From the NCBI GenBank assembly GCA_044892525.1, contig CM097885.1, positions 107,880,001 to 107,944,000 on the forward strand: 64,000 bases of DNA. Direction: 5' to 3'. This document shows, one piece after another, positions 29,000-64,000 of this stretch. How positions within the stretch are numbered: the first letter of the stretch is position 1; every line of letters starts with the position of its first letter. The notes under the pieces are model-generated. The model was not told the origin of the DNA. It ran no database searches and saw only the letters and a list, made by a program, of their open reading frames with translations. This DNA comes from Schmidtea polychroa (Eukaryota). The position numbers and the translations under genes were made by a program.

Positions 29000-30669
29000 T
29001 CGGGCTTTTTAAATATTGATATGGCTTCTTTTCTACTTTTTTTCGCATATATGTTCACGAGGTACTTAATTAGGTTCATTCTATAATATTTGATCAGCTC
29101 GAAGTTGTCAATGACCCGTCCTCTGTCGTCTAACATGTATGTCGTGAGGGAGCTACCCTACCAGAAAGCTGATAATCGGAAAATTATGAGAATAATAAAA
29201 TCCACATCGAATAAGAATTTGTTATTAAAATTCTGTTGTAAGTTAATTTTTGAAAATGTTGCTCCTGCTGATAATATTACCATCTTGTTTTTTGCTTGGT
29301 TTTAAAATAATCTGCTTTTGTTCTTCCTTCTTTTCTTCTTCAGCATTTGTGAAAATTTCTTCTATCTTGTATTATCGTTATTCAAACAAACTTAAAAAAT
29401 ATTTAATTAATTATAAAATAATTAAACTAAATATAATATAATGTAATGCCAAGGCACTACCATGTGTATGAAAATGTGTAAGTACTTTTGTTGTAAAATT
29501 AAGACTAAGAAATTTGAATAATTAAAATTTATTTATATAAGTTACAATTTCTTCACAAATCATAATACAAATAACAATTAACAAATAAAGTATATTTAAA
29601 TATTTATATAATCCAACGTGTCCTTTTATTATTAAAACCACTATAATTAATAAACATTAATTATTAAACATCACTCTCATCCTCTTCATTTGTTTTTGCA
29701 TCTCTTCAGTCATTCAGTTCTTCTTGATTTGATTAAGTTTGGAAATTGTAATTCAACTTGTCTTGGTGATAAGAATTTTAAAATTTTGTAAGGTCCCTCA
29801 TATTGAATTCCCTCCTTCTTTCGTCTATGTGGTTCCAAACGAACTAATACTTAAATACTTAAAAATTTAAAATGTCTTTTGCCTGTTTAGGTAAAGATAC
29901 CCATCTTTCTATTCAGATTTCTTATCACTACTCGAATCGGCTCGATTTTCTTGGCGTGGTCGCCAGTTGCAATTTCTTCACAAATCATAATACAAATAAC
30001 AATTAACAAATAGAGTATTTAAATATTTGATGAAAAATTTTCAACTATGATGTTAAAGGCAATCTAAGTTAAGTTAAATTTATAGTTTATATTTTAGAAC
30101 TGATATAATTTTATAATTTATACTTTTAAGTTTATAATTTATATTTGGTGAAGTTCAATTTATAGTTTATATTCCTAAAGCTAATATAATTTTATAATTT
30201 GTATTTTTAAGTTTATAATTTATATTTTTATGAAGTTAATTTTATGGTTTATATTTTAAAGCTAATATAATTTTATAATTTATACTTTTAAGTTTATAAT
30301 TTATATTTGGTGAAGTTCAATTTATAGTTTATATTTCTAAAGTTAATATAAATTATTCCACATGGGTCTTGAGGGGAAGATTATGGTATTTGTTATTTTC
30401 TAAATCTATATATACATACACACATCCACATATATATACGTATACACATACACCCACACATATATACATATATGGATATAATTTAAATTAATAATATTGA
30501 TGCCGTTTTCCGGGGGGGGGGGGTGTTACTAAAAATAGATTTTAGTGATTTTCCGTAATTTTATTGGAAGATAGGGCCATTGAAACTAAATTTAGAGATA
30601 GGGGAATCCCAATTTCAATAATTTGTTATATAATTTTATTTTTATGAAATAAAGATAATTATTTTAATA

Positions 30670-30700
<31 letters not shown>

Positions 30701-33700
30701 AGTAATAATAATAGTAAGAGTNNNNNNNNNNNNNNNNNNNNNNNNNNNNNNNNNNNNNNNNNNNNNNNNNNNNNNNNNNNNNNNNNNNNNNNNNNNNNNN
30801 NNNNNNNNNNNNNNNNNNNNNNNNNNNNNNNNNNNNNNNNNNNNNNNNNNNNNNNNNNNNNNNNNNNNNNNNNNNNNNNNNNNNNNNNNNAACATTACTA
30901 CATATGGGGGGATCATTTTCGAAAATTTATGGAATTATTATTATTTTTTTTTTGGTTTGAAATACAATTTGACTCTACGAAGATGATACAATTCAGTATA
31001 CCTAAGGAATAGTTAATGGCTACATGATTTGAAGGGGGTTCATTTATGAAAATTTTCAATTTATATTTTAAAATATAATATAAGTTAAATATATATTAAG
31101 ATAAGCTAATTTAGTATATTTAGGTGGTAGTTGATGACTATATGGTTTATGGGGGGTCTTTGATGAAAAATTTTCAACTATGATGTTAAAGGCAATCTAA
31201 GTTAAGTTAAATTTATAGTTTATATTTTAAAGCTAATATAATTTTATAATTTATATTTTTATGAAGTTAAATTTATAGTTTATATTTTAGAACTGATATA
31301 ATTTTATAATTTATACTTTTAAGTTTATAATTTATATTTGGTGAAGTTCAATTTATAGTTTATATTCCTAAAGCTAATATAATTTTATAATTTGTATTTT
31401 TAAGTTTATAATTTATATTTTTATGAAGTTAAATTTATGGTTTATATTTTAAAGCTAATATAATTTTATAATTTATACTTTTAAGTTTATAATTTATATT
31501 TGGTGAAGTTCAATTTATAGTTTATATTTCTAAAGTTAATATAATTTTATAATTTATATTGTTAAGTTTATAATTTATATTTTTATGAAGTTAAATTTAT
31601 GGTTTATATTTTAAAGCTAATATAATTTTATAATTTATATTTTGATGAAGTTAAGTTTATAATTTATATTTTTAAAACTAATATAACTTTATAATTTATA
31701 CTTTTAAGTTTATAATTTATATTTTTATGAGGTTAAGTTAAATTTATAGTTTATGTTCTAAGACTAATATAATTTTATGATTTATACTTTTAAGATCATG
31801 ATTTATATTTTGAAGAAATTAAGATTATAATTTATACTTTTACAATCAACTTAGAGTTATAATTTATAATTTATAGTCAATGTAAATTTGTAATTTATAT
31901 TTTTAGGAAATTAAATTTATAATTTATACTTCTATAACTAATTATAATTTATATTTTTATGAAATTAGTATTATAATTTATACTTTTACAATCAACTTAG
32001 AGTTATAATTTATAATTTTTCAGTCAATATAAATTTGTAATTTATATTCTTAGGAAATTAAATTTATAATTTATACTTTTATAACTAATCATAATTTATA
32101 TTTTGAAGAAATTAAATCTATAAGTATAATTCATATTTTTATGAAATTGAGAGGATAATTTATACTTTTATGGGTTTACGATTTGTATTTTTATAGTTAG
32201 TTTAGAGTCTATTCAATTTAGTGTAGAATAATGTGAAGATGTTGCCCGAACTTATAAGTTATAGATATAATATTAGTAGTTTATAGATAAAGAGACTTTA
32301 TCAATATGTCTACGGGAATTTGCGCATACCAAGACCATTACGATAGAGAAATTTAGTTTGCATCAAAATAGGTTATTTTGTGGGCATCTATAGATATTAG
32401 TTCGCTTACCAGTGCGATTGAGATTATATCATCTTAGGTCCTACTCATCGCATGAACTTTAGGTTGCAGTATTCTTACAGGGAATGGTTCAAAATTTTTA
32501 AGTCTTTAATTGCCTTAAAAAAATTTTGCGCAGGGATCTCCTTGTTATTTTGAGTTAATTAGTTTCTTAGGTTCACATTGAATTTATAGTTTAAGAGGGA
32601 TTCGTTTAGAAATAACCAGCTACACTATCATGTTGTATTGTGTGAAATTTGAGTCAGGGGATATTCCCCGTTTATCAGTTCCTAATGTTGTGTGCAAAAT
32701 AGTATAATTTAAGTGTTAATTTAGGTATGTAAGTTAACGAAAAGGTCGATTTAATTAAAATTTACCTACTTTCCCGACTACACTGAGTACGGTACGATAG
32801 GCCCTATTGTAATATGTATCCACAATTAGTTTCCCATAATTATTTCGTCCGCATAGTCCCTGTGACTATGCCAACTACCAAGAAGGATTTATACGCCCTA
32901 CTCATGGTTAAACACCAATAGTTCGTGGCGACCTCTGGTTAAGATTATGATTTTAGTGCATGTAGGGTCGATGACCCGAAATCATTATGAACTGTGCATT
33001 CATAAATGATAAAGTGCATAGGTGCAGGTTTGGCTGGGATCTCGCTTCAAAATCATTGATAACCGACGATCTCATTCAAATCTACACCTCTATAATTAAA
33101 TAGAAATAATGAAAACAAGGTTTCAATAATAATAATTTATAATTCACAATGAAATCGTCCTTACTTACAATCTCAGAAAAATCAAAATCAAAAATTTGGC
33201 ATAAGAGTAAAAATATTCATTTTCATTTTTTTCCTTGCTTAAAAAGTGACGAAATGTGTTAGTTTATATAGCCTCTGTTTGACGTGTAAGTATACATGCG
33301 TGCATTGATGCAGTAAAACAAATTCAGATTATTTTAAATCTCGAACATTCGATTTTTAATTTTTATCGATTTTGATGGCAATTTTTCAGTAAGAATTTTT
33401 GTTTTTATTTTTGAAATTTTATTTTCGAATTATTTTTTATTAAATTTGCCTCCATGATGGATTTCAGCATTTCCAGAACAGTCCATGCTAAATTCAATCT
33501 ATTTCTTATTTTTAAATTGTTTTTTATGATTTCTTTTCTAAAATATTTATTTTTTAAACTAAAATATTTATTTTTTATAAATTTTATTGGGTCGTTTGGC
33601 CGTCATGGTGGATTTCGCCATTTTTATGAATTGTTCTGGATTTTTATTCAAAATATCGATATAATTTTCTTTACGTAAGATTTTATGAAGATTTTCTTTA

Positions 33701-45684: not shown

Positions 45685-46170
45685 ATGAAATTCCTTTTAG
45701 TGTACAAATTAATGGAGAATCTACGTAAAGATCGGGAGCAGGCCCAACAACAAGCCGACGAACTCCGAGTCCGAGGGAATAAGTTGAAAAGGAAATGTCG
45801 GGAGCTCGGGGGGACCTGGTTTAGTCCCGAGGCAATGAAAAAGAAAACAGCTCAGATTCTCCAACTGCAGACACAAGCAAATCAAGACCAAATGGAGATC
45901 CGCGCCCTGAAATTGCAGGTGCGGGCACTCGAAACCGAGCGTAATGAACAATTTATCCAGGAAGCCGTGGCACGACAAATACGGCCGCTGACCGTTGAAC
46001 TCGCAACAATATATCCTCCAGCCGCGGAAGGTAAACCCAAACGAAAGCGGCTTGGACGGAACATTCGGGAGAAGTTAAAAAAGGCCAGATTGGCCGAGTT
46101 CGAACGGCAAGCAAATTCATCGCAAGCGTCTACGACGGGGTTGGCCAGCTCTACCAACAAGCCGATTTGA
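45685..46170 (+). CDS. Cargo ORF-B1: coiled-coil protein with a basic C-terminal patch, unknown function
   Basis: GC-rich ORF homologous over its whole length to 51450-51914 (DREQAQ, CR..xTWF, QLQ, QDQ.E.RAL, IRPL). Homology starts right after a shared TTTAG/TG acceptor, so the true 5' end may be spliced. Confidence 0.75.
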   Translation: MKFLLVYKLMENLRKDREQAQQQADELRVRGNKLKRKCRELGGTWFSPEAMKKKTAQILQLQTQANQDQMEIRALKLQVRALETERNEQFIQEAVARQIRPLTVELATIYPPAAEGKPKRKRLGRNIREKLKKARLAEFERQANSSQASTTGLASSTNKPI

Positions 46171-50550: not shown

Positions 50551-51033
50551 ATGCCCAACACCAGGTCAAGGAATATGCAGGCCGGCCCCTCATCAGTCGA
50601 TTCGAGCCTAGAAATTACCGGCGAGGAAGCAGACGAAGCCGTCCGATTGAGAGAGGACGCAGAAATCGCCCGGCTACGGTCCAGGTGGGTCTGGTACAAG
50701 ATCCATGATTGGACTTACCAGAACGTGATCCCCGTAATTCCGAAGGTGGAGCCTTACCTCAACCACGCGTCGTTAGCCTTGATCGACGCTTTTGACGAAG
50801 TGACGGATGCGATAGACCGATTACACCGGCTCGAGAAAGCGACTCTGGCTGGCGAGGTAGAAGACTGCGACGGCTACGCTCGAGCCCAATGTCACCCGAA
50901 ACGGACCGCGGCTCTTCAGCGTGGATTAAAATACCCAAGACGGCCTCAACGAGGACCAGGACGACCAAGGACACGCGGACACACGCGAACGTCCACCCGC
51001 TCGACCAAGGAGAGCGCGGGATTTGGAGAGTAG
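50551..51033 (+). CDS. Cargo ORF-A2: 160 aa, acidic N-terminus, coiled coil, basic tail with a GRPR (AT-hook-like) motif
   Basis: Intact GC-rich ORF. Its ATG follows a TACAG acceptor plus 2 nt, exactly as in ORF-A1. Confidence 0.75.
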   Translation: MPNTRSRNMQAGPSSVDSSLEITGEEADEAVRLREDAEIARLRSRWVWYKIHDWTYQNVIPVIPKVEPYLNHASLALIDAFDEVTDAIDRLHRLEKATLAGEVEDCDGYARAQCHPKRTAALQRGLKYPRRPQRGPGRPRTRGHTRTSTRSTKESAGFGE

Positions 51034-51449: not shown

Positions 51450-51914
51450 GTGCAGAAACTCTTGGAAGAGATGCGAGCTGATAGGGAACAGGCACAACGA
51501 CAGGTAGACGAATACCGGACCAAGTTGACCCGAGTCAAGACCCACTGTCGGAACTTCGAGTGCACCTGGTTCCCACCAGCGGAGATGAAGAAGAGGATGA
51601 AGTTGATCACCCAACTGCAACTTCAGAATGCTCAAGACCAGATTGAGTTGCGGGCCCTCCGCTTAAGGGTGAGGGAACTGGAAGCCAAGGTGCATCAACA
51701 GGAGCTGGAGCGAGAGGTCATTGCCAAGATCCGGCCTTTAGATGAGTTGCTCCATCGACCAAAAGAACCTGCCCCCACAATAGTAACCCCAAGGAAGAAG
51801 ATTCGGCCGGGAAAAGCGGCACGAGCGAGGATGAGGCAGGCCAGCCAGGCCCAATTAGCTCTCCATGCTACTGAATCAGAGGCTACGCCAAGAGAACCGA
51901 CCAGCACACGATAA
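51450..51914 (+). CDS. Cargo ORF-B2: coiled-coil protein with a basic C-terminal patch, unknown function
   Basis: Paralogue of 45685-46170 with amino acids conserved despite many synonymous differences; begins at a TTTAG/TG acceptor. Confidence 0.75.
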   Translation: MQKLLEEMRADREQAQRQVDEYRTKLTRVKTHCRNFECTWFPPAEMKKRMKLITQLQLQNAQDQIELRALRLRVRELEAKVHQQELEREVIAKIRPLDELLHRPKEPAPTIVTPRKKIRPGKAARARMRQASQAQLALHATESEATPREPTSTR

Positions 51915-56399: not shown

Positions 56400-56675
56400 G
56401 TAAATTCGAAATTGGTGCAAAACTATCAAAAATGAAAATAGTTAGTCACACCAAGTAAGGACTTGAAAGTCAGCACACAGTGTCATATCGTTCCCAATGA
56501 AATGGAAAAGGTGAAAGGTTCCATAGAATTCTTTAAGCAGTCATGCCATATTCATATAACGCCACCAGAAGTTGGCAAAATGAGCTTCCAACAATTTTAC
56601 TTGGACTTCGCAATGTCATCTATGATGAAATAAATTTGACACCAAGTCAAAGTGTTTTTGGAATTAATGGACGTC
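56400..56675 (+). pseudogene. Ty3/gypsy integrase fragment, truncated by the Polinton insertion
   Basis: SYRSQ*NGKGERFHRIL*...WQNELPTILLGLRNV...LTPSQSVFG is a classic gypsy integrase C-terminal core; the similarity stops abruptly at 56675. Confidence 0.8.
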
Positions 56676-56786
56676 AGTAGATGGATTGGGCACCGCTGGC
56701 ACAGGGCACCGCTAGCACAGTACCCCCCCTCCCCCCCCGTCGGTAAGATTTTCAAAAATATTCTAAGTCTAAAAGTACATTTTTTT

Positions 56787-57446
56787 TTCAAGGTCAAATT
56801 TAAACAAAGACATATGACTCATCAAGGTCATTGAAACAAAGACCATGAGTCATCCTATGACTCATAAAATTTTTCAAGGTCATTTAAACAAAGACCATGA
56901 CTCATCCGATGACTCATCAAGGGCATTTTCAAGGTCATATGACTCATAGTATGACTCAGATGACCTTGAAAATTTTTTTCAAGGTGATATGACTCATCCT
57001 ATAACTCATCAAGGTCATTTTCAAGGTCATATGACTCATAGTATGACTCATCTGACCTTGAAAAATTTTTTTTCAAGGTCATATGACTCATCCTATGACT
57101 CATCAAGGTCATTGAAACAAAGACCATGACTCATAGTGTGACTCACCAAGGTCATTTTCAAGGTCATATGACTCATCAAGGTCATTTTCAAGGTCATATG
57201 ACTCATAGTATGACTCATTTGACCTTGGAAATTTTTTTTTCAAGGTCATATGACTCATCCTATGACTCGTCAAGGTCATTCTCAAGGTCATATGACTCAT
57301 CCGATGACTCATCAAAATTTTCAAGGTCATTTTCAAGGTCATCTGAGTCATCCTATGACTCATCAAGGTCATTTTCAAGGTCACATGACTCATCCAAGGT
57401 CATTCCCAAGGTCATATGAGTCATCGCGATGACTCATCAAGGTCAT
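56787..57446. repeat. Polinton subterminal tandem/inverted repeat array built from TGA(C/G)TCA and (T/C)CAAGGTCA
   Basis: About 25 copies of each motif by manual count, some inverted to form hairpins (TGACCTTGAAAAA..TTTTCAAGGTCA). Confidence 0.9.
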
Positions 57447-57601
57447 ATTATTATTTTTAAAAAATATTATTATTTTTATTATTATTTTTAAAAATATTAT
57501 TATTTTATTTTTAATTTTTTCAAAGTTCCCGCCAACGAAAATTAATAATCGATAGCTCATTTTAAAGCTCAATCCAAGACCTTTCGAATGAGCCATATAT
57601 C

Positions 57602-57670
<69 letters not shown>

Positions 57671-57795
57671 GTATTAATCTATATACACCGAGTCTATATA
57701 CTCTGAGTCTATCCGACAAAATATTTTGTCCCCCTATGGGTAATGCTCACAAGGGTACTGGTCACGCTCAACAAATCAACAAAACATACATTTAT

Positions 57796-58296
57796 TTAAA
57801 CAATAAAATAATGTAAAATTAACAAAGGTAAACTAAATATTGATGCACTTCTATTCGCAGCATTATTGTTAGAAATTGGTAACGTTGAATTGATTTTCAG
57901 ATATTCTATTGATCCTTTGATTGTTTGAATTTCTCTTAATAATAATTCAATCTTTTTTAACAAATAATCATGCTTCTTATCAATAATCTTCATATTCTTT
58001 TTATTTTCAGTAATAGAGTTATTGAAAACCTCAATATGATCAATCAATTTAATTTTTATATTTTGTATATATTCAAATGTTAGTTCATAACTGTTTTCTA
58101 AATTCTCCAATCTTTGAGATATTCTTTTTCCTGGATGCTTTGACCATTTTGGTTTATCGAGAATATATAAAATATCCATCAACTTGGCTGTATTCGGACA
58201 AACACATATTGATTTATTAAAAGACTCCACCGTTATTGTTGTATTGTGTGAGCACACACTCGTTATAATAATTAGCAATATGAATAGAGTTTTCAT
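57796..58296 (-). CDS. Polinton accessory protein: signal peptide, coiled coil, C-terminal hydrophobic (GPI-signal-like) tail, 166 aa
   Basis: MKTLFILLIIITSVCS signal peptide; five N-x-S/T sequons; heptad-rich middle; NNNAANRSASIFSLPLLILHYFIV end; TATAAAT upstream. Confidence 0.7.
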   Translation of the reverse strand: MKTLFILLIIITSVCSHNTTITVESFNKSICVCPNTAKLMDILYILDKPKWSKHPGKRISQRLENLENSYELTFEYIQNIKIKLIDHIEVFNNSITENKKNMKIIDKKHDYLLKKIELLLREIQTIKGSIEYLKINSTLPISNNNAANRSASIFSLPLLILHYFIV

Positions 58297-58321: not shown

Positions 58322-58375
58322 TTACATTTATAGTCTATCAACCAATCAAAATCATCCGGTATTAGTATAAATAAA
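58322..58375. promoter_or_regulatory. Divergent promoter with two TATA-like boxes around a CCAAT box
   Basis: TATAAAT on the minus strand at about 58326-58332, AACCAATCA at about 58340 and TATAAATA at about 58367, between the ATGs at 58296 and 58402. Confidence 0.5.
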
Positions 58376-58401: not shown

Positions 58402-58922
58402 ATGTCTCAATTTATGGAAAATCTTTTAAGAGAACTCGTCAACAGGAATATTATGGAAAGCCTATGTTTCCTGGTCGATCGGACCGAAAAGATTATAGAA
58501 GGTAATCACATTGATTATGACGATGTGATCAATTCTGATTGTCTCGAAACCAAAAAATTCTATTTTAATAGAATTTTTAACTGTCTATGCGACGATCAGA
58601 TGAAGTGGACCCGAATACTAGTAGGGTTCGCTTATATGAAAATAATAATCCAAAGAAGTCTATGGGACTCAGAGCACTATTATCAGTGGTCTCAAGAAGT
58701 AATACTTTTATAATTTATATTTTATTAATATTTATTTTCTAGATAATCAAGTCAAAGTTTCAACCATGGATTGAAGCCAATGGCGGATGGGGAGTACTCA
58801 ATCAACTCGCCAGAAATGCAAAAGAAATAGACGATCAGAAAAGAAAATTTAAAAACTATGTAAAACTTGCAACAGGTGTTGCTATTTTGTATATTTTAAC
58901 CAGATTTTTAAATAAAAATTAA
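58402..58922 (+). CDS. Bcl-2 family protein, 158 aa, two exons (58402-58698, 58743-58922; 44-nt intron)
   Basis: BH1-like LCDDQMKWTRILVGFAY. Splicing GTAATA...TTCTAG (phase 0) gives WSQEIIKSKFQPWIEANGGW, aligning without gaps to Bcl-xL WMATYLNDHLEPWIQENGGW. C-terminal tail anchor LATGVAILYILTRFLNKN. Confidence 0.88.
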
Positions 58923-59511: not shown

Positions 59512-59922
59512 TTAAAATATTTGTGAAAGTCTAGCAGACATAATTTTCCAAATAGGAGAATATACATCATTATTATCAACTTTATATCCCTGGATTGCAA
59601 TTGTTATATACCAATTTTCATTTTCTTTGAAAGCGATTTCATCAAAGGAATCATAAAATCTTGCATATTTATTGTTGAACCATGCATGTTGATTACACGA
59701 TAGATTCGAATCTATCCGTTTAAAAACATCATCAATAGTTTTGACATCAATCATTGAAAGCGTGCCGGATAAGAATTCAAATTTAGTTGGAATTAGCTTG
59801 ACTGGTGCAACCAATTTCATATTGATTTCTTCTTTCAAAAAATACATTTTGTAGTTGTGGAACATTTGAACTGGTTGTACCATTTCTTTAGGTTTTTCGG
59901 TGCTTGAAATTTTCTTGGTCAT
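59512..59922 (-). CDS. Polinton hypothetical protein, 136 aa (beta-rich C-terminus)
   Basis: ATG-initiated ORF with TATAAAAA about 40 nt upstream and CCAAT at about 59983; no confident family. Confidence 0.65.
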   Translation of the reverse strand: MTKKISSTEKPKEMVQPVQMFHNYKMYFLKEEINMKLVAPVKLIPTKFEFLSGTLSMIDVKTIDDVFKRIDSNLSCNQHAWFNNKYARFYDSFDEIAFKENENWYITIAIQGYKVDNNDVYSPIWKIMSARLSQIF

Positions 59923-60765: not shown

Positions 60766-61203
60766 TTAGAAATCGACCAATGAAATTATCTCATTTCGAA
60801 CATTGTCAACAAATTCTCTATACTCCAAATTTCTCAACCCCAACATGACAACCTTTCCACTAGCAAACACGTTGACACATATAGGGTTATATTTTAATAG
60901 TCTTAGTGCCGGAAACAATTCCGGTTCAAACATACAATCACATTTTTTCGACATGTTATATAGATTGATACTATGTCCCATATCCATAGTAACGGTAATT
61001 GATTGGATTTTAATATTATTTATTCGATATTGTAATTTATTAATATCCAAAGGTTTCTTACATCCCATGATTCTGCATTTACCAGTCTTGAAAAATATTA
61101 TCGGATATTTCCCACTTCTATCGATAATTTGCTGGGGTTTCCCTGGTGGGAACCTCATATTCGATACATCAAAATTTCCTCGATAATTTATATTTGCTAA
61201 CAT
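60766..61203 (-). CDS. Compact TATA-binding-protein-like protein, 145 aa
   Basis: Both TBP repeats are recognisable: LANINYRGNF...IIFFKTGKCRIMG and IQSITVTMD...FEPELFPALRL...VNVFASGKVVMLG. Confidence 0.85.
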   Translation of the reverse strand: MLANINYRGNFDVSNMRFPPGKPQQIIDRSGKYPIIFFKTGKCRIMGCKKPLDINKLQYRINNIKIQSITVTMDMGHSINLYNMSKKCDCMFEPELFPALRLLKYNPICVNVFASGKVVMLGLRNLEYREFVDNVRNEIISLVDF

Positions 61204-61302
61204 TATTAAATCATTTATGAAAATTAGTCTTTATATACAAATTGAGCACGAGTTCATTAAATCATCGAATATAAACAAATACACATTTATAAAATATTTG
61301 AA

Positions 61303-61929
61303 ATGGAATTAAGAAATGATGCTGTATACCAAATCGTTGGTCCGAGTGGTAGTGGAAAAACATTATTTGTTTGTAAATTACTAAAATCCAATTTATTCAA
61401 ATCAAAATTCAACAGGATTTATTGGCATAGGGGTGCTGATGAAGAACATGGATTAACTCAATCAAGTTTCTGTAAATTAAAAAACATGAAAATAGTAAAG
61501 GGATTCGATAAAAACTGGTCCAGCCGATTAAAGAAAGGCGATGTCATTATTATCGATGATTTGTATCAAGAAGCTAATAAAGAAAAAGATTTTAATAATT
61601 TATTTACAAAGATTAGCAGACATGTCGGTGTAACAGTTATTTTCATAACTCAAAATCTATTTCATCAAGGTGGGGCACATCGAACACGTAATTTAAATGT
61701 ACAATATTTAGTCATTTTCAAGAATCCTAGAGATGCAACAGTGATTGATTTTCTTGCACGTCAAGCATACCCTAACAATCGTAATTTTCTTATCAGTGCA
61801 TTTCAAGATGCTACAAAAATACCTCATGGATATATATTTCTTGATTTCACACAACAATGTCCCGATGATTTACGTGTAAAAACAGATATTTTCAACCCAA
61901 AAGGTGCCATGGTTTATAAACAAAGTTGA
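61303..61929 (+). CDS. Polinton packaging ATPase (A32/FtsK-HerA-like), 208 aa
   Basis: Walker A GPSGSGKT, Walker B VIIIDD, and SRH, ITQ and FKNPRD motifs typical of Polinton ATPases. Confidence 0.92.
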   Translation: MELRNDAVYQIVGPSGSGKTLFVCKLLKSNLFKSKFNRIYWHRGADEEHGLTQSSFCKLKNMKIVKGFDKNWSSRLKKGDVIIIDDLYQEANKEKDFNNLFTKISRHVGVTVIFITQNLFHQGGAHRTRNLNVQYLVIFKNPRDATVIDFLARQAYPNNRNFLISAFQDATKIPHGYIFLDFTQQCPDDLRVKTDIFNPKGAMVYKQS

Positions 61930-61947
61930 AAACCTCTATGAATAATA

Positions 61948-62481
61948 ATGTTTCTAAAAGCAAGGGTGAAAAATATTAGGAAATTAAGAAAAGGTATTAG
62001 AAAGACTATTAAAGTTCCAAAGGTTCCACCAACAACTAGTTATACACCATCTAAAAAACTTGTAACTGAAAATTTCTCTGCAATGAATCTTATTTCGAAA
62101 AATCCTAAACCTAAACGTAAAACCCGTAAAACCCGTAAAACCGGTAAAAAAGTAGTTAAAAATCATCGCAGTTTTCCATTTTTTAATGCATTGTTAAAGG
62201 CTCCGAGTATGAAAAGAATGAATATATTGCAATCATTCCCAAATTTTGTTGTCGATGATTTACTCAATATTATACTTAAAGTAGTCAAAGGCAAAATTAA
62301 AATCAGTAAATCAAAAAAGCATTTATTGAGCAAACATAGGAAACCTTTATTATCTTTAGTAAATAATAAAAATCGTAAGCAAATGAGGAAAATTATATAT
62401 AAACAACAAGGTGGATTTATTGGTGCCTTGATACCTCTGGCATTATCATTATTAGGTGGAGTTGTAGGAAATCAATCATAA
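61948..62481 (+). CDS. Basic putative virion core protein with an adenovirus pX-like C-terminus, 177 aa
   Basis: Very Lys/Arg-rich; ends QQGG-FIGALIPLALSLLGG, resembling adenovirus pX MRGG-ILPLLIPLIAAAIG (protease site plus hydrophobic peptide). Confidence 0.7.
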   Translation: MFLKARVKNIRKLRKGIRKTIKVPKVPPTTSYTPSKKLVTENFSAMNLISKNPKPKRKTRKTRKTGKKVVKNHRSFPFFNALLKAPSMKRMNILQSFPNFVVDDLLNIILKVVKGKIKISKSKKHLLSKHRKPLLSLVNNKNRKQMRKIIYKQQGGFIGALIPLALSLLGGVVGNQS

Positions 62482-62484
62482 ACA

Positions 62485-62712
62485 ATGGGTGCTAATCCTT
62501 CATTGCCCGACATTAAATTTAATTTTAAATCTTCTTGTTGTAATGGAGAAGATTTGGACGAACCCAGAAGACGAAGCCGGTTTCGGTGGAGTGGCAAAAT
62601 TAAACAAAAGAGTTCCGAATTCGAAAAAAGAAACCCAGAAGTGGTTATCAGATCAGCTTGCGTACAGTTTGAACAAACCAATGCGGAAAAGATTTCCAAC
62701 AAGAGCGTATAA
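62485..62712 (+). CDS. Candidate small ORF with an N-myristoylation signal, overlapping the integrase start in another frame, 75 aa
   Basis: ACAATGG start context; MGANPS (MGxxxS), a CC pair and a basic cluster; fills the gap between the core-protein stop and the integrase ATG. Confidence 0.45.
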   Translation: MGANPSLPDIKFNFKSSCCNGEDLDEPRRRSRFRWSGKIKQKSSEFEKRNPEVVIRSACVQFEQTNAEKISNKSV

Positions 62713-62930
62713 AACATTTGGTATTGACGATTTATGGCAAATGGATTTGATGGAGATGATACCATATTCGAAAATTAACAATGGGAATAAATATATTTTA
62801 ACATGTATTAATGTATACAGCAGGTTTGCACGAGCAATACCAGTCAAGGCAAAATCTGCAGAAGAAATGTCCAAGGCAATTAATATTTTATTTAAAGATG
62901 GACATCCTAATAATTTGCAAACAGATTTAG

Positions 62931-63001
<71 letters not shown>

Positions 63002-63631
63002 TTAGGTAAAGAATTCTACAATAGCAAAGTTAAGCAAATCCTCGATAAACTGAAAATAAATCACTACTCGGTACATTCTCAATACAAAGCTGCCCATGTT
63101 GAAAGATTTAATCGAACATTGAGAGATAGATTAAAGAAATTGTTCGTGCATCAAGGTAATAAAAAATGGGTAAATGCTTTACCGAAAATAATAACAAGTT
63201 ATAATCATTCATCACATCGAGGACTGAATGGATTGAGACCGGTTGATATTACATCAAAAACACCATTATCTAAAAAATCTGTAAAAATTGCAAAACCTAA
63301 ATATAAAGTCGGTGACCATGTTAGAATTAGTAAAATTAGTGCATCACCATTTATTAAAAATTTTGATACAAATTGGAGTGATGAAGTCTTTGTAATTTCA
63401 AAAATAAATACTAAACAGAATCCTGTAATGTATGTCATCAAAGACAATGATAATAATATTGTACAGGGGAAATTTTATGAGCAGAAATTACAAGTCATTC
63501 CTCCCCCAAAAGTATTTAGAATTCAAAAAATATTGAAAACTAAAAAGGTCGGTAAGGATAAACAATACTATATCAAATGGCACGGTTATCAAAACCCGTC
63601 ATGGATATCGTCAAAAGACCTAGTAAAATGA
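62543..63631 (+). CDS. Polinton retroviral-type DDE integrase with a C-terminal chromodomain; 337 aa after removing the 75-nt intron 62931-63005
   Basis: WQMD, QTDLG/KEF and VERFNRTL catalytic motifs; chromo-like FRIQKIL...YYIKWHGY...SW. Likely start ATG is 62543 (MEKIW). Confidence 0.92.
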
Positions 63632-64000
63632 ATTTTTATATTATTTTACCTAGCAATAGCTGTCCACTTATTCATCCAGATAATAAAGCCAGCAAATTCA
63701 GGGTCAATCTTCAAAATCCGATATATTTGGATAATAGCTGGGAAGTTGCTCTGTTGGATTTTACATTTGTATACCAAGCCTTTCCATTTTATAGTAAGGC
63801 TAAAATTGGATACAAAAAGAATGAGTGGCCGGATAGATTATTGTCTATGATCATTGATAATGCAGATGATGAAGTTCGGTTGTCTAACTCAACTGATCCA
63901 GCTGTGAAAATGTATATTAACCATTCATATATAGTAGTTGAATGTAAACATTATCCTTTTACTGTAAAATTTGATAGTTTGGAAATGGCAAAACGATTGG
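63628..64000 (+). CDS. Polinton minor capsid protein (penton), N-terminal part; runs off the window
   Basis: ATGA overlap with the integrase stop; MNFYIILPSNS...HPDN..SKFRVNL..PIYL..SWEVAL is the typical Polinton penton N-terminus; frame open to the window end. Confidence 0.85.
   Translation, partial: MNFYIILPSNSCPLIHPDNKASKFRVNLQNPIYLDNSWEVALLDFTFVYQAFPFYSKAKIGYKKNEWPDRLLSMIIDNADDEVRLSNSTDPAVKMYINHSYIVVECKHYPFTVKFDSLEMAKRL

Follow-up and report, generated by a model that had tools for sequence, protein, structure and literature searches.

The 64,000-nucleotide stretch of DNA analysed here (the window) holds the left part of a Polinton of 18,814 bp, which runs from 56676 to 75489 in window numbering, 11.5 kb beyond the window end, and has the ends AGTAG...CTACT. 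The hallmarks of Polintons/Mavericks are found together in this element, namely long inverted repeats, AG...CT ends, a 6-bp duplication, an rve integrase, an A32-like ATPase, a protease and PolB (Table 1). A Polinton setting had been inferred in a preliminary description of this DNA, and it is borne out by the terminal inverted repeats, the AGTAG...CTACT ends and the GACGTC duplication. As far as Polintons, Mavericks and adintoviruses are described in the accessible parts of two sources, they share with this element the terminal inverted repeats, pPolB, integrase, ATPase, adenain-type protease and Bcl-2-like gene (PMC8502044; 10.1101/697771).

Table 1. Features of the Polinton and its target site, in window numbering
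Feature	Position	Strand	Remarks
Target-site duplication GACGTC (6 bp)	56670..56675	+	repeated after right end
Left terminal inverted repeat	56676..58222	.	~1.5 kb, starts AGTAG, 91-92% identical to right one
Bcl-2-like accessory gene	58402..58713	+	Pfam Bcl-2 E 0.01, below curated cut-off; canonical TATA at 58366
Conserved 136-aa gene	59512..59922	-	no named family; canonical TATA in front here
Mini-TBP gene, 145 aa	60766..61203	-	PF00352, AlphaFold model, yeast TBP alignment
Canonical TATA box TATATAAA	61230..61237	-	34 nt before mini-TBP start; likely early, host-TBP promoter (putative function)
TATAAACA box in head-to-head gap of 99 bp	61270..61277	+	32 nt before ATPase start; likely late promoter
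Packaging ATPase (A32-like), 208 aa	61303..61929	+	Pfam Pox_A32 E 3.6e-7
TATAAACA box in ATPase 3' end	61915..61922	+	32 nt before basic-protein start
Basic 177-aa protein, probable virion core protein	61948..62481	+	no Pfam family; putative role
CATAAACA box overlapping basic-protein stop codon	62477..62484	+	65 nt before integrase ORF start
Retroviral-type integrase with chromodomain	62543..63631	+	Pfam rve E 1.1e-5 (below curated cut-off), Chromo E 0.0013
Predicted GT-AG intron in integrase gene, 75 nt	62931..63005	+	filled with ATT repeats
Putative minor capsid gene, start	63577..64000, runs on	+	named from position and size
121-aa gene	64625-64990 (beyond window)
Putative major capsid, 407 aa	64987-66210 (beyond window)		position, size, weak profile match
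Adenovirus-type protease	66155-66622 (beyond window)		Pfam Peptidase_C5
Protein-primed PolB	69750-73142 (beyond window)

The PolB has no direct Pfam or PDB match but shows 28% identity along 354 aa (E 1e-36) with a PF03175-positive polymerase. For the putative major capsid, likewise without a Pfam or PDB match, profile comparison gave a weak similarity to a PF21738-positive capsid (E 0.0008, probability 24.5%). The predicted intron of the integrase gene is in frame and would be translated as poly-Ile if unspliced; its GT-AG borders point to transcription of the element by RNA polymerase II (Pol II). None of the element's ORFs was recognised as a gene for an RNA polymerase or for TFIIB. Among 80 metagenome loci with a relative of the 145-aa gene (kept out of 177 confirmed), the conserved 136-aa gene adjoins that relative in 20 and relatives of the basic protein occur in nine.

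The mini-TBP, its fold and its family

The open reading frame of the mini-TBP is intact. An in-frame stop lies 10 codons upstream of its ATG, with no earlier ATG, and the protein therefore lacks an N-terminal extension; its core is 30 residues shorter than that of TBP, and the shortfall falls in the first repeat. The missing extension and the shortness had been claimed in the preliminary description, together with the presence of both TBP repeats and of the motifs IIFFKTGK, ELFPAL and NVFASGK, all three of which are found. In Pfam, PF00352 matches residues 63-125 (E 1.6e-15, 57.1 bits against a curated cut-off of 22.9), so that by sequence alone only the second TBP repeat is seen, and in a PDB sequence search all 35 of 35 matches were TBPs or TBP fusions. 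The AlphaFold model, built from an alignment of 110 sequences, has a pLDDT of 95.7. In an unbiased structure search (VIA) 145/145 of its residues align to yeast TBP 66-240 (PDB 7o4i_O; Z 13.3, rmsd 2.4 A), the next unrelated fold scoring Z 6.5, and with Foldseek the top matches are TBPs throughout. The two-lobed saddle fold of the TBP family is thus predicted with both repeats, of which the second is complete in the model, while the first consists of four strands without helix H1 or H2. The claim of two repeats accordingly holds by structure and, by Pfam, for the second only; the profile search and the structure prediction, both proposed earlier as checks, each gave the TBP answer.

Positions on the saddle are given here in yeast TBP numbering, taken from our own alignments and from the residue list in Table 1 of PMC12529657. 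Residues F38, F97 and F113 of mini-TBP match yeast F116, F190 and F207, so that, as had been proposed, three of the four intercalating Phe are kept and the first is gone. No Phe is found among the common residues of the F99 column across the mini-TBP family, and by internal repeat symmetry K22 would occupy that position. Along with the three Phe and the saddle fold, mini-TBP shares with yeast TBP N69, P191 and the acidic EPELF stirrup (E186/E188/L189, here E93/E95/L96); it differs from cellular TBP in an identity of 24%, in the loss of F99, in a polar DNA face and in being encoded by a mobile element. Across the family the DNA face has changed at V71>N, V122>R, T124>M, N159>S, V161>T, I194>R, V203>C and L205>N, and these changes are near-invariant. 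At six of the positions a hydrophobic residue has been made polar (V71, V122, V161, I194, V203 and L205 to N, R, T, R, C and N). In the part of PMC1636458 consulted, the altered-specificity yeast mutant TBPm3 carries its three changes at I194, V203 and L205, and the natural changes in mini-TBP, as aligned, coincide with these engineered specificity sites. Mini-TBP is therefore a member of the TBP-fold family, yet it fails three features of a canonical TBP, namely the four Phe, the hydrophobic DNA face and the complete first repeat.

The stirrup is well kept in the family, with E186 retained in 129 and E188 in 142 of the best 150 profile matches, and the C-terminal stirrup of mini-TBP is predicted to suit contact with TFIIB. 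A distant member of 167 aa (L103) has both N-lobe helices H1 and H2 in its model, and helix loss would therefore be a later step, taken in the subgroup of this mini-TBP.

A single-sequence search gave 109 relatives at 37-97% identity, mostly of 144-165 aa, and against clusters formed at 50% identity a profile search yielded 67 matches at E up to 1e-30; among the best 150 profile matches the signature R44/M46/N111 occurs in 113 of 119 scorable rows. A Polinton core gene lies beside the mini-TBP in 39/80 of the metagenome loci, and in 14/16 of those longer than 5 kb, with major capsids 26-58% and polymerases 31-51% identical to those of this element. In searches of IMG/VR, GTDB genomes and phage records, which were pattern-limited or done with BLAST, no relative was confirmed. 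An 'Archaea' label (Atlas) on the nearest cluster was set aside, since it rests on one record, and an association of the gene with the virion module irrespective of polymerase type was considered and abandoned, since the longer polymerase proved 59% identical to this element's. In a distant subgroup (L113, L118, L103, L110 and L121) the mini-TBP adjoins a gene with a PLA2 domain (shown by Pfam for L113 and L118); L113 has a KilA-N gene too, and several members carry one or two ~150-aa genes of no Pfam family.

A phylogeny against host and viral TBPs had been proposed as a further check, and in it the mini-TBPs form a clade of their own. The tree comprised 64 rows, made up of 48 of the 83 extracted Polinton proteins (near-copies thinned), 6 host, 3 haloarchaeal and 7 viral-contig TBPs. 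The 48 mini-TBPs lie on one side of a 100/100 branch and all the others on the other side, although this branch is long and the outgroup small; the sampled viral-contig TBPs group with cellular TBPs. dN/dS of mini-TBP is 0.076-0.394 in 15 of 16 pairs, the remaining pair being saturated, and purifying selection acts on the gene. Mini-TBP is thus a stable gene of a broad Polinton clade and not a one-off, while it is missing from a second Polinton lineage of the same genome (see below). Its short length and the lost key Phe might be read as signs of a recently captured host TBP copy in decay, an outcome which the preliminary description had itself named as contrary to its view. This origin is scarcely credible, given a local identity of only 22-35% to host TBP-family genes, the separate long-branch clade, purifying selection and retention in Polintons whose major capsids are 26-58% identical, and we regard it as ruled out.

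Within the 781-Mb genome there are at least 150 copies of the mini-TBP gene (150 scored of 4174 candidates), of which 111 are identical and 39 reach 99%; no copy contains a stop, and this identity of 99-100% argues for recent spread of this Polinton family. Other Polinton families here carry mini-TBP variants that are 53-63% identical, head-to-head with the ATPase in 10/10 copies read. At loci L141-L160 and L169-L188 at least four such variants (53-63%) adjoin ATPases that are 87-97% identical, and the minor capsid genes are only ~52-66% identical in most copies; this unequal divergence of neighbours suggests module swapping at the head-to-head promoter. The host itself has a canonical, intron-containing TBP gene and, besides it, five or more divergent genes of the TBP family, of which two or three seem to lack introns (L161-L168). 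TFIIB-type open frames of ~300 aa gave 13 matches in two clusters (G000:C3:38.2-39.1 Mb; C1:23.8-24.2 Mb, L195-L197), and the three that were read are intronless TFIIB-like genes. The named relatives of host TFIIB are animal proteins, ~46-54% identical, which marks the host as an animal.

An ATAAAC box before structural genes

The gap between the mini-TBP and ATPase genes holds two kinds of box, a canonical TATA facing the former and a variant facing the latter, and the variant recurs before structural genes with the consensus (T/C)ATAAAC(A/G), that is, Y-ATAAAC-R. Its statistics were taken from 57 non-redundant loci of 81, in windows at -80..-21 of ORF starts and against 20 shuffles. ATAAAC is the top hexamer in these windows (76/217, against 9.25 in shuffles), with a distance peak of 67 sites 30-44 nt before starts, and 95 of its 321 sites lie before starts, against 4/108 for GTAAAC, 7/211 for ATAAAG, 24/585 for ATAAAA and 41/544 for ATAAAT. 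Counted gene by gene at no more than 70 nt before the start, with near-identical copies from this genome included, the box precedes the ATPase in 34/36 cases, the major capsid in 17/21, the minor capsid in 17/21, the basic protein in 11/12 and the integrase in 16/28; it is missing within that distance at 12/28 integrase and 4/21 major-capsid starts, and in the two ATPase exceptions it sits at 70-71 nt. Before mini-TBP itself the box is rare (3/83), and a canonical TATA precedes this gene in 35/83 cases, against 2/36 for the ATPase. The variant box is therefore found before late-type and not early-type genes, where early and late are assigned by gene type and the timing would follow from that assignment; at distant loci it is also found in front of non-structural genes.

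This element has 12 ATAAAC(A/G) sites, of which 11 are plus-strand sites and seven lie no more than 100 nt before virion-module or integrase starts. Across the window ATAAACA is not enriched (36 against 39.4 expected), and the bias is only in its placement before starts. The box differs from TATAWAWR at position 7, which would lie beside the site of the lost Phe. Covariation of DNA-face residue 101 (R or L) with the box was considered and rejected, since members with L still have the box, both apparent exceptions carrying it 70-71 nt upstream.

As a control, a second Polinton lineage was found in the same genome by Pfam searches, represented by seven related copies (L217-L218, at G000:C3:135.33-135.35 Mb, and six others among L214-L231 and L247-L249), with a PF21738 capsid and an integrase fused to a PLA2-like domain. 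The mini-TBP profile, which does detect cellular TBPs, found no TBP-like ORF in six of its seven 30-kb regions, and in the seventh the match comes from an adjacent Polinton of the first type. ATAAAC at -80..-21 was found before 0/50 core-gene starts of the seven copies. This joint absence of gene and box is consistent with coupling of the two, although as a single lineage it does not prove it, and the link could reflect shared ancestry alone, because loci entered the positive set through their TBP gene and all seven control copies belong to one lineage. Capsid and ATPase alignments run against IMG/VR to widen the control to further elements lacking the TBP gene yielded no confirmed relative. 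In the second lineage AA stands directly before the ATG at 50/50 core-gene starts, mostly as TAAAATG or TAAATG, which we take to recall poxvirus late promoters, and this lineage may use a different transcription route.

A candidate late-promoter factor and its alternatives

Since the box is shared by packaging and capsid-module genes and is missing in the lineage without the gene, mini-TBP likely reads it. We consider it probable that mini-TBP is the Polinton's own late-promoter factor, which would read Y-ATAAAC-R with host TFIIB and Pol II, and we infer for it DNA binding, a preference for the box, TFIIB recruitment and early-late timing. In such a scheme, host TBP would first transcribe the mini-TBP gene from its ordinary TATA promoter, mini-TBP would then bind the Y-ATAAAC-R boxes that lie 30-45 nt ahead of the genes for packaging, integrase and the capsid module, and the acidic stirrup of the bound protein would bring in host TFIIB and RNA polymerase II. 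A preference for C at position 7 would be expected (compare TATAAACA, CATAAACG and TATAAAAG). In TBP structures it is the N-lobe that recognises the 3' end of the box and that provides the contact surfaces for TFIIA, TAF1, Mot1/BTAF1 and Brf1, and helix H2 is the main site for the C-terminal part of Brf1. On these surface assignments, loss of the N-lobe Phe, of the N-lobe stirrup and, in this subgroup, of the helices would free mini-TBP from TFIIA, TAF1, Mot1/BTAF1 and Brf1, and it would act outside TFIID. The preliminary description had supposed a redirection of host Pol II to the element's TATA promoters; redirection is supported indirectly, whereas the target would be the variant box, an ordinary TATA standing before mini-TBP itself. 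The wider proposition, that a widespread Polinton clade has a TBP of 145-165 aa with a rebuilt DNA face which by itself steers TFIIB and Pol II of the host to a private box with the core ATAAAC, we regard as evenly balanced.

Factors that work in a related way have been described in viruses. In the parts of PMC12529657 consulted, the TBP mimics of beta- and gamma-herpesviruses pair with a TATTWAA box before late genes, and one of them, KSHV ORF24, resembles mini-TBP in being virus-encoded, in its polar DNA face and in its variant TATA box. ORF24 is there a multidomain protein of 752 aa which is part of a six-protein complex, binds Pol II directly, keeps all four Phe and lacks the TFIIB acidic residues (PMC12529657), whereas mini-TBP has 145 aa, has lost one Phe and has kept the TFIIB stirrup. 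The Pol II-binding N-terminal domain and the C-terminal DNA-binding extension of the ORF24 type are absent from mini-TBP, which is the saddle only, and the likeness would be one of way of working and not of sequence kinship. Large DNA viruses also encode proteins of the TBP fold (in BFVD, the HaV01 TBP and a B263R homologue), with named viral matches only 9-20% identical. In the accessible text of PMC12917281, vaccinia VITF-3 is a TBP/TFIIB pair which works with vaccinia's own RNA polymerase, and it resembles mini-TBP as a virus-encoded TBP fold for staged transcription; unlike in vaccinia, no RNA polymerase or TFIIB gene was recognised beside mini-TBP. In the text available from Starrett et al. 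(2021), 'TBP' is named once, in a figure legend for MELD viruses, with no family, range or promoter given there (PMC8502044), and its comparison with the mini-TBP family extends to that legend text. No description of the mini-TBP family or of the ATAAAC box was found in the open-licence literature.

The TFIIB stirrup is the best-kept surface of mini-TBP, and the same surface would suit a protein which antagonises the host by TFIIB titration or TATA occupancy, with the box left to host TBP, one of its paralogues or some other factor of the host. The host owns divergent TBP and TFIIB paralogues, TATAAAC may serve as a host TBP site, and ATAAACA fits the forkhead consensus RTAAAYA. Such a host-read box is nevertheless unlikely, as a near-invariant, re-engineered DNA face is needless in a decoy, GTAAAC, the core of the forkhead site, shows no enrichment ahead of starts (4/108 against 95/321 for ATAAAC), 57 of 381 sites end in G, and in the same host the lineage without the gene is also without the box. 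A dominant-negative role, which the preliminary description had offered as an option, likewise fits less well with a DNA face that is near-invariant in its new polar form and with the existence of a matching box. The head-to-head arrangement with the ATPase, across a 99-bp gap containing both box kinds, would also allow mini-TBP to be a repressor or feedback switch on its own canonical TATA promoters or on the terminal repeats, which turns early genes off instead of late genes on, and the N-lobe losses could leave its complexes unproductive; we find this improbable, since the acidic TFIIB-binding residues are retained and the variant box would be left without a reader.

Service to another polymerase is to be doubted to a similar degree. 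Factors of the TFIIB family that serve Pol III or large DNA viruses also use the C-terminal stirrup of TBP, so that the kept stirrup of mini-TBP could engage Pol III through Brf1 or Brf2, or an RNA polymerase supplied by a large DNA virus during co-infection, and TBP-fold proteins are encoded by such viruses (BFVD matches). A spliceosomal intron is however predicted in a box-led gene, helix H2 is missing from the mini-TBP model, no relative was confirmed in IMG/VR contigs and the sampled viral TBPs group with cellular ones. There is still less to be said for ATAAAC as a 3'-end signal (polyadenylation or termination) of the upstream gene, unconnected to mini-TBP. The poly(A) signal is known to occur in the variants TATAAA and CATAAA, and 37 of 381 ATAAAC sites overlap a stop codon, but for 67 of the 95 sites that are followed by a start at 25-80 nt no same-strand ORF ends nearby, an A directly precedes the box at only 97 of 381 sites, and the box occurs in the head-to-head gap, where no gene ends.

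If the wider proposition holds, mini-TBP would act in the eukaryotic nucleus much as alternative sigma factors do, and these integrated elements would run a staged early-to-late, virus-like programme. The questions addressed are how capsid genes are timed in Polintons without a polymerase of their own and whether a genuine viral phase exists in Polintons; a TBP dedicated to the element and paired with its own box would be a direct, testable answer to them and would allow virion-module genes to be marked by sequence. As regards transcription, mini-TBP would be a natural altered-specificity TBP, changed at the three TBPm3 positions, which shows what parts of the saddle are dispensable, and an orthogonal TBP-promoter pair may be of use as a tool.

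Some minor features of the element and its surroundings were also recorded. The left terminal repeat (56676-58222) contains 19 TCAAGGTCA and 22 TGACTCA words, which presumably resemble NR5A/FTZ-F1 and AP-1 sites, and this cluster is a possible enhancer array; a site scan for p53-type half-sites gave one in the element, inside PolB, and none in the left repeat. Upstream of the Polinton lie ORFs of no Pfam family at 45685-46170, 50551-51033 and 51471-51914, with a related-looking ORF ~2.4 kb beyond its right end, and these flanking ORFs probably belong to another repeat family. AT-rich tandem arrays with an 81-nt period occupy 29990-32170 of the window.
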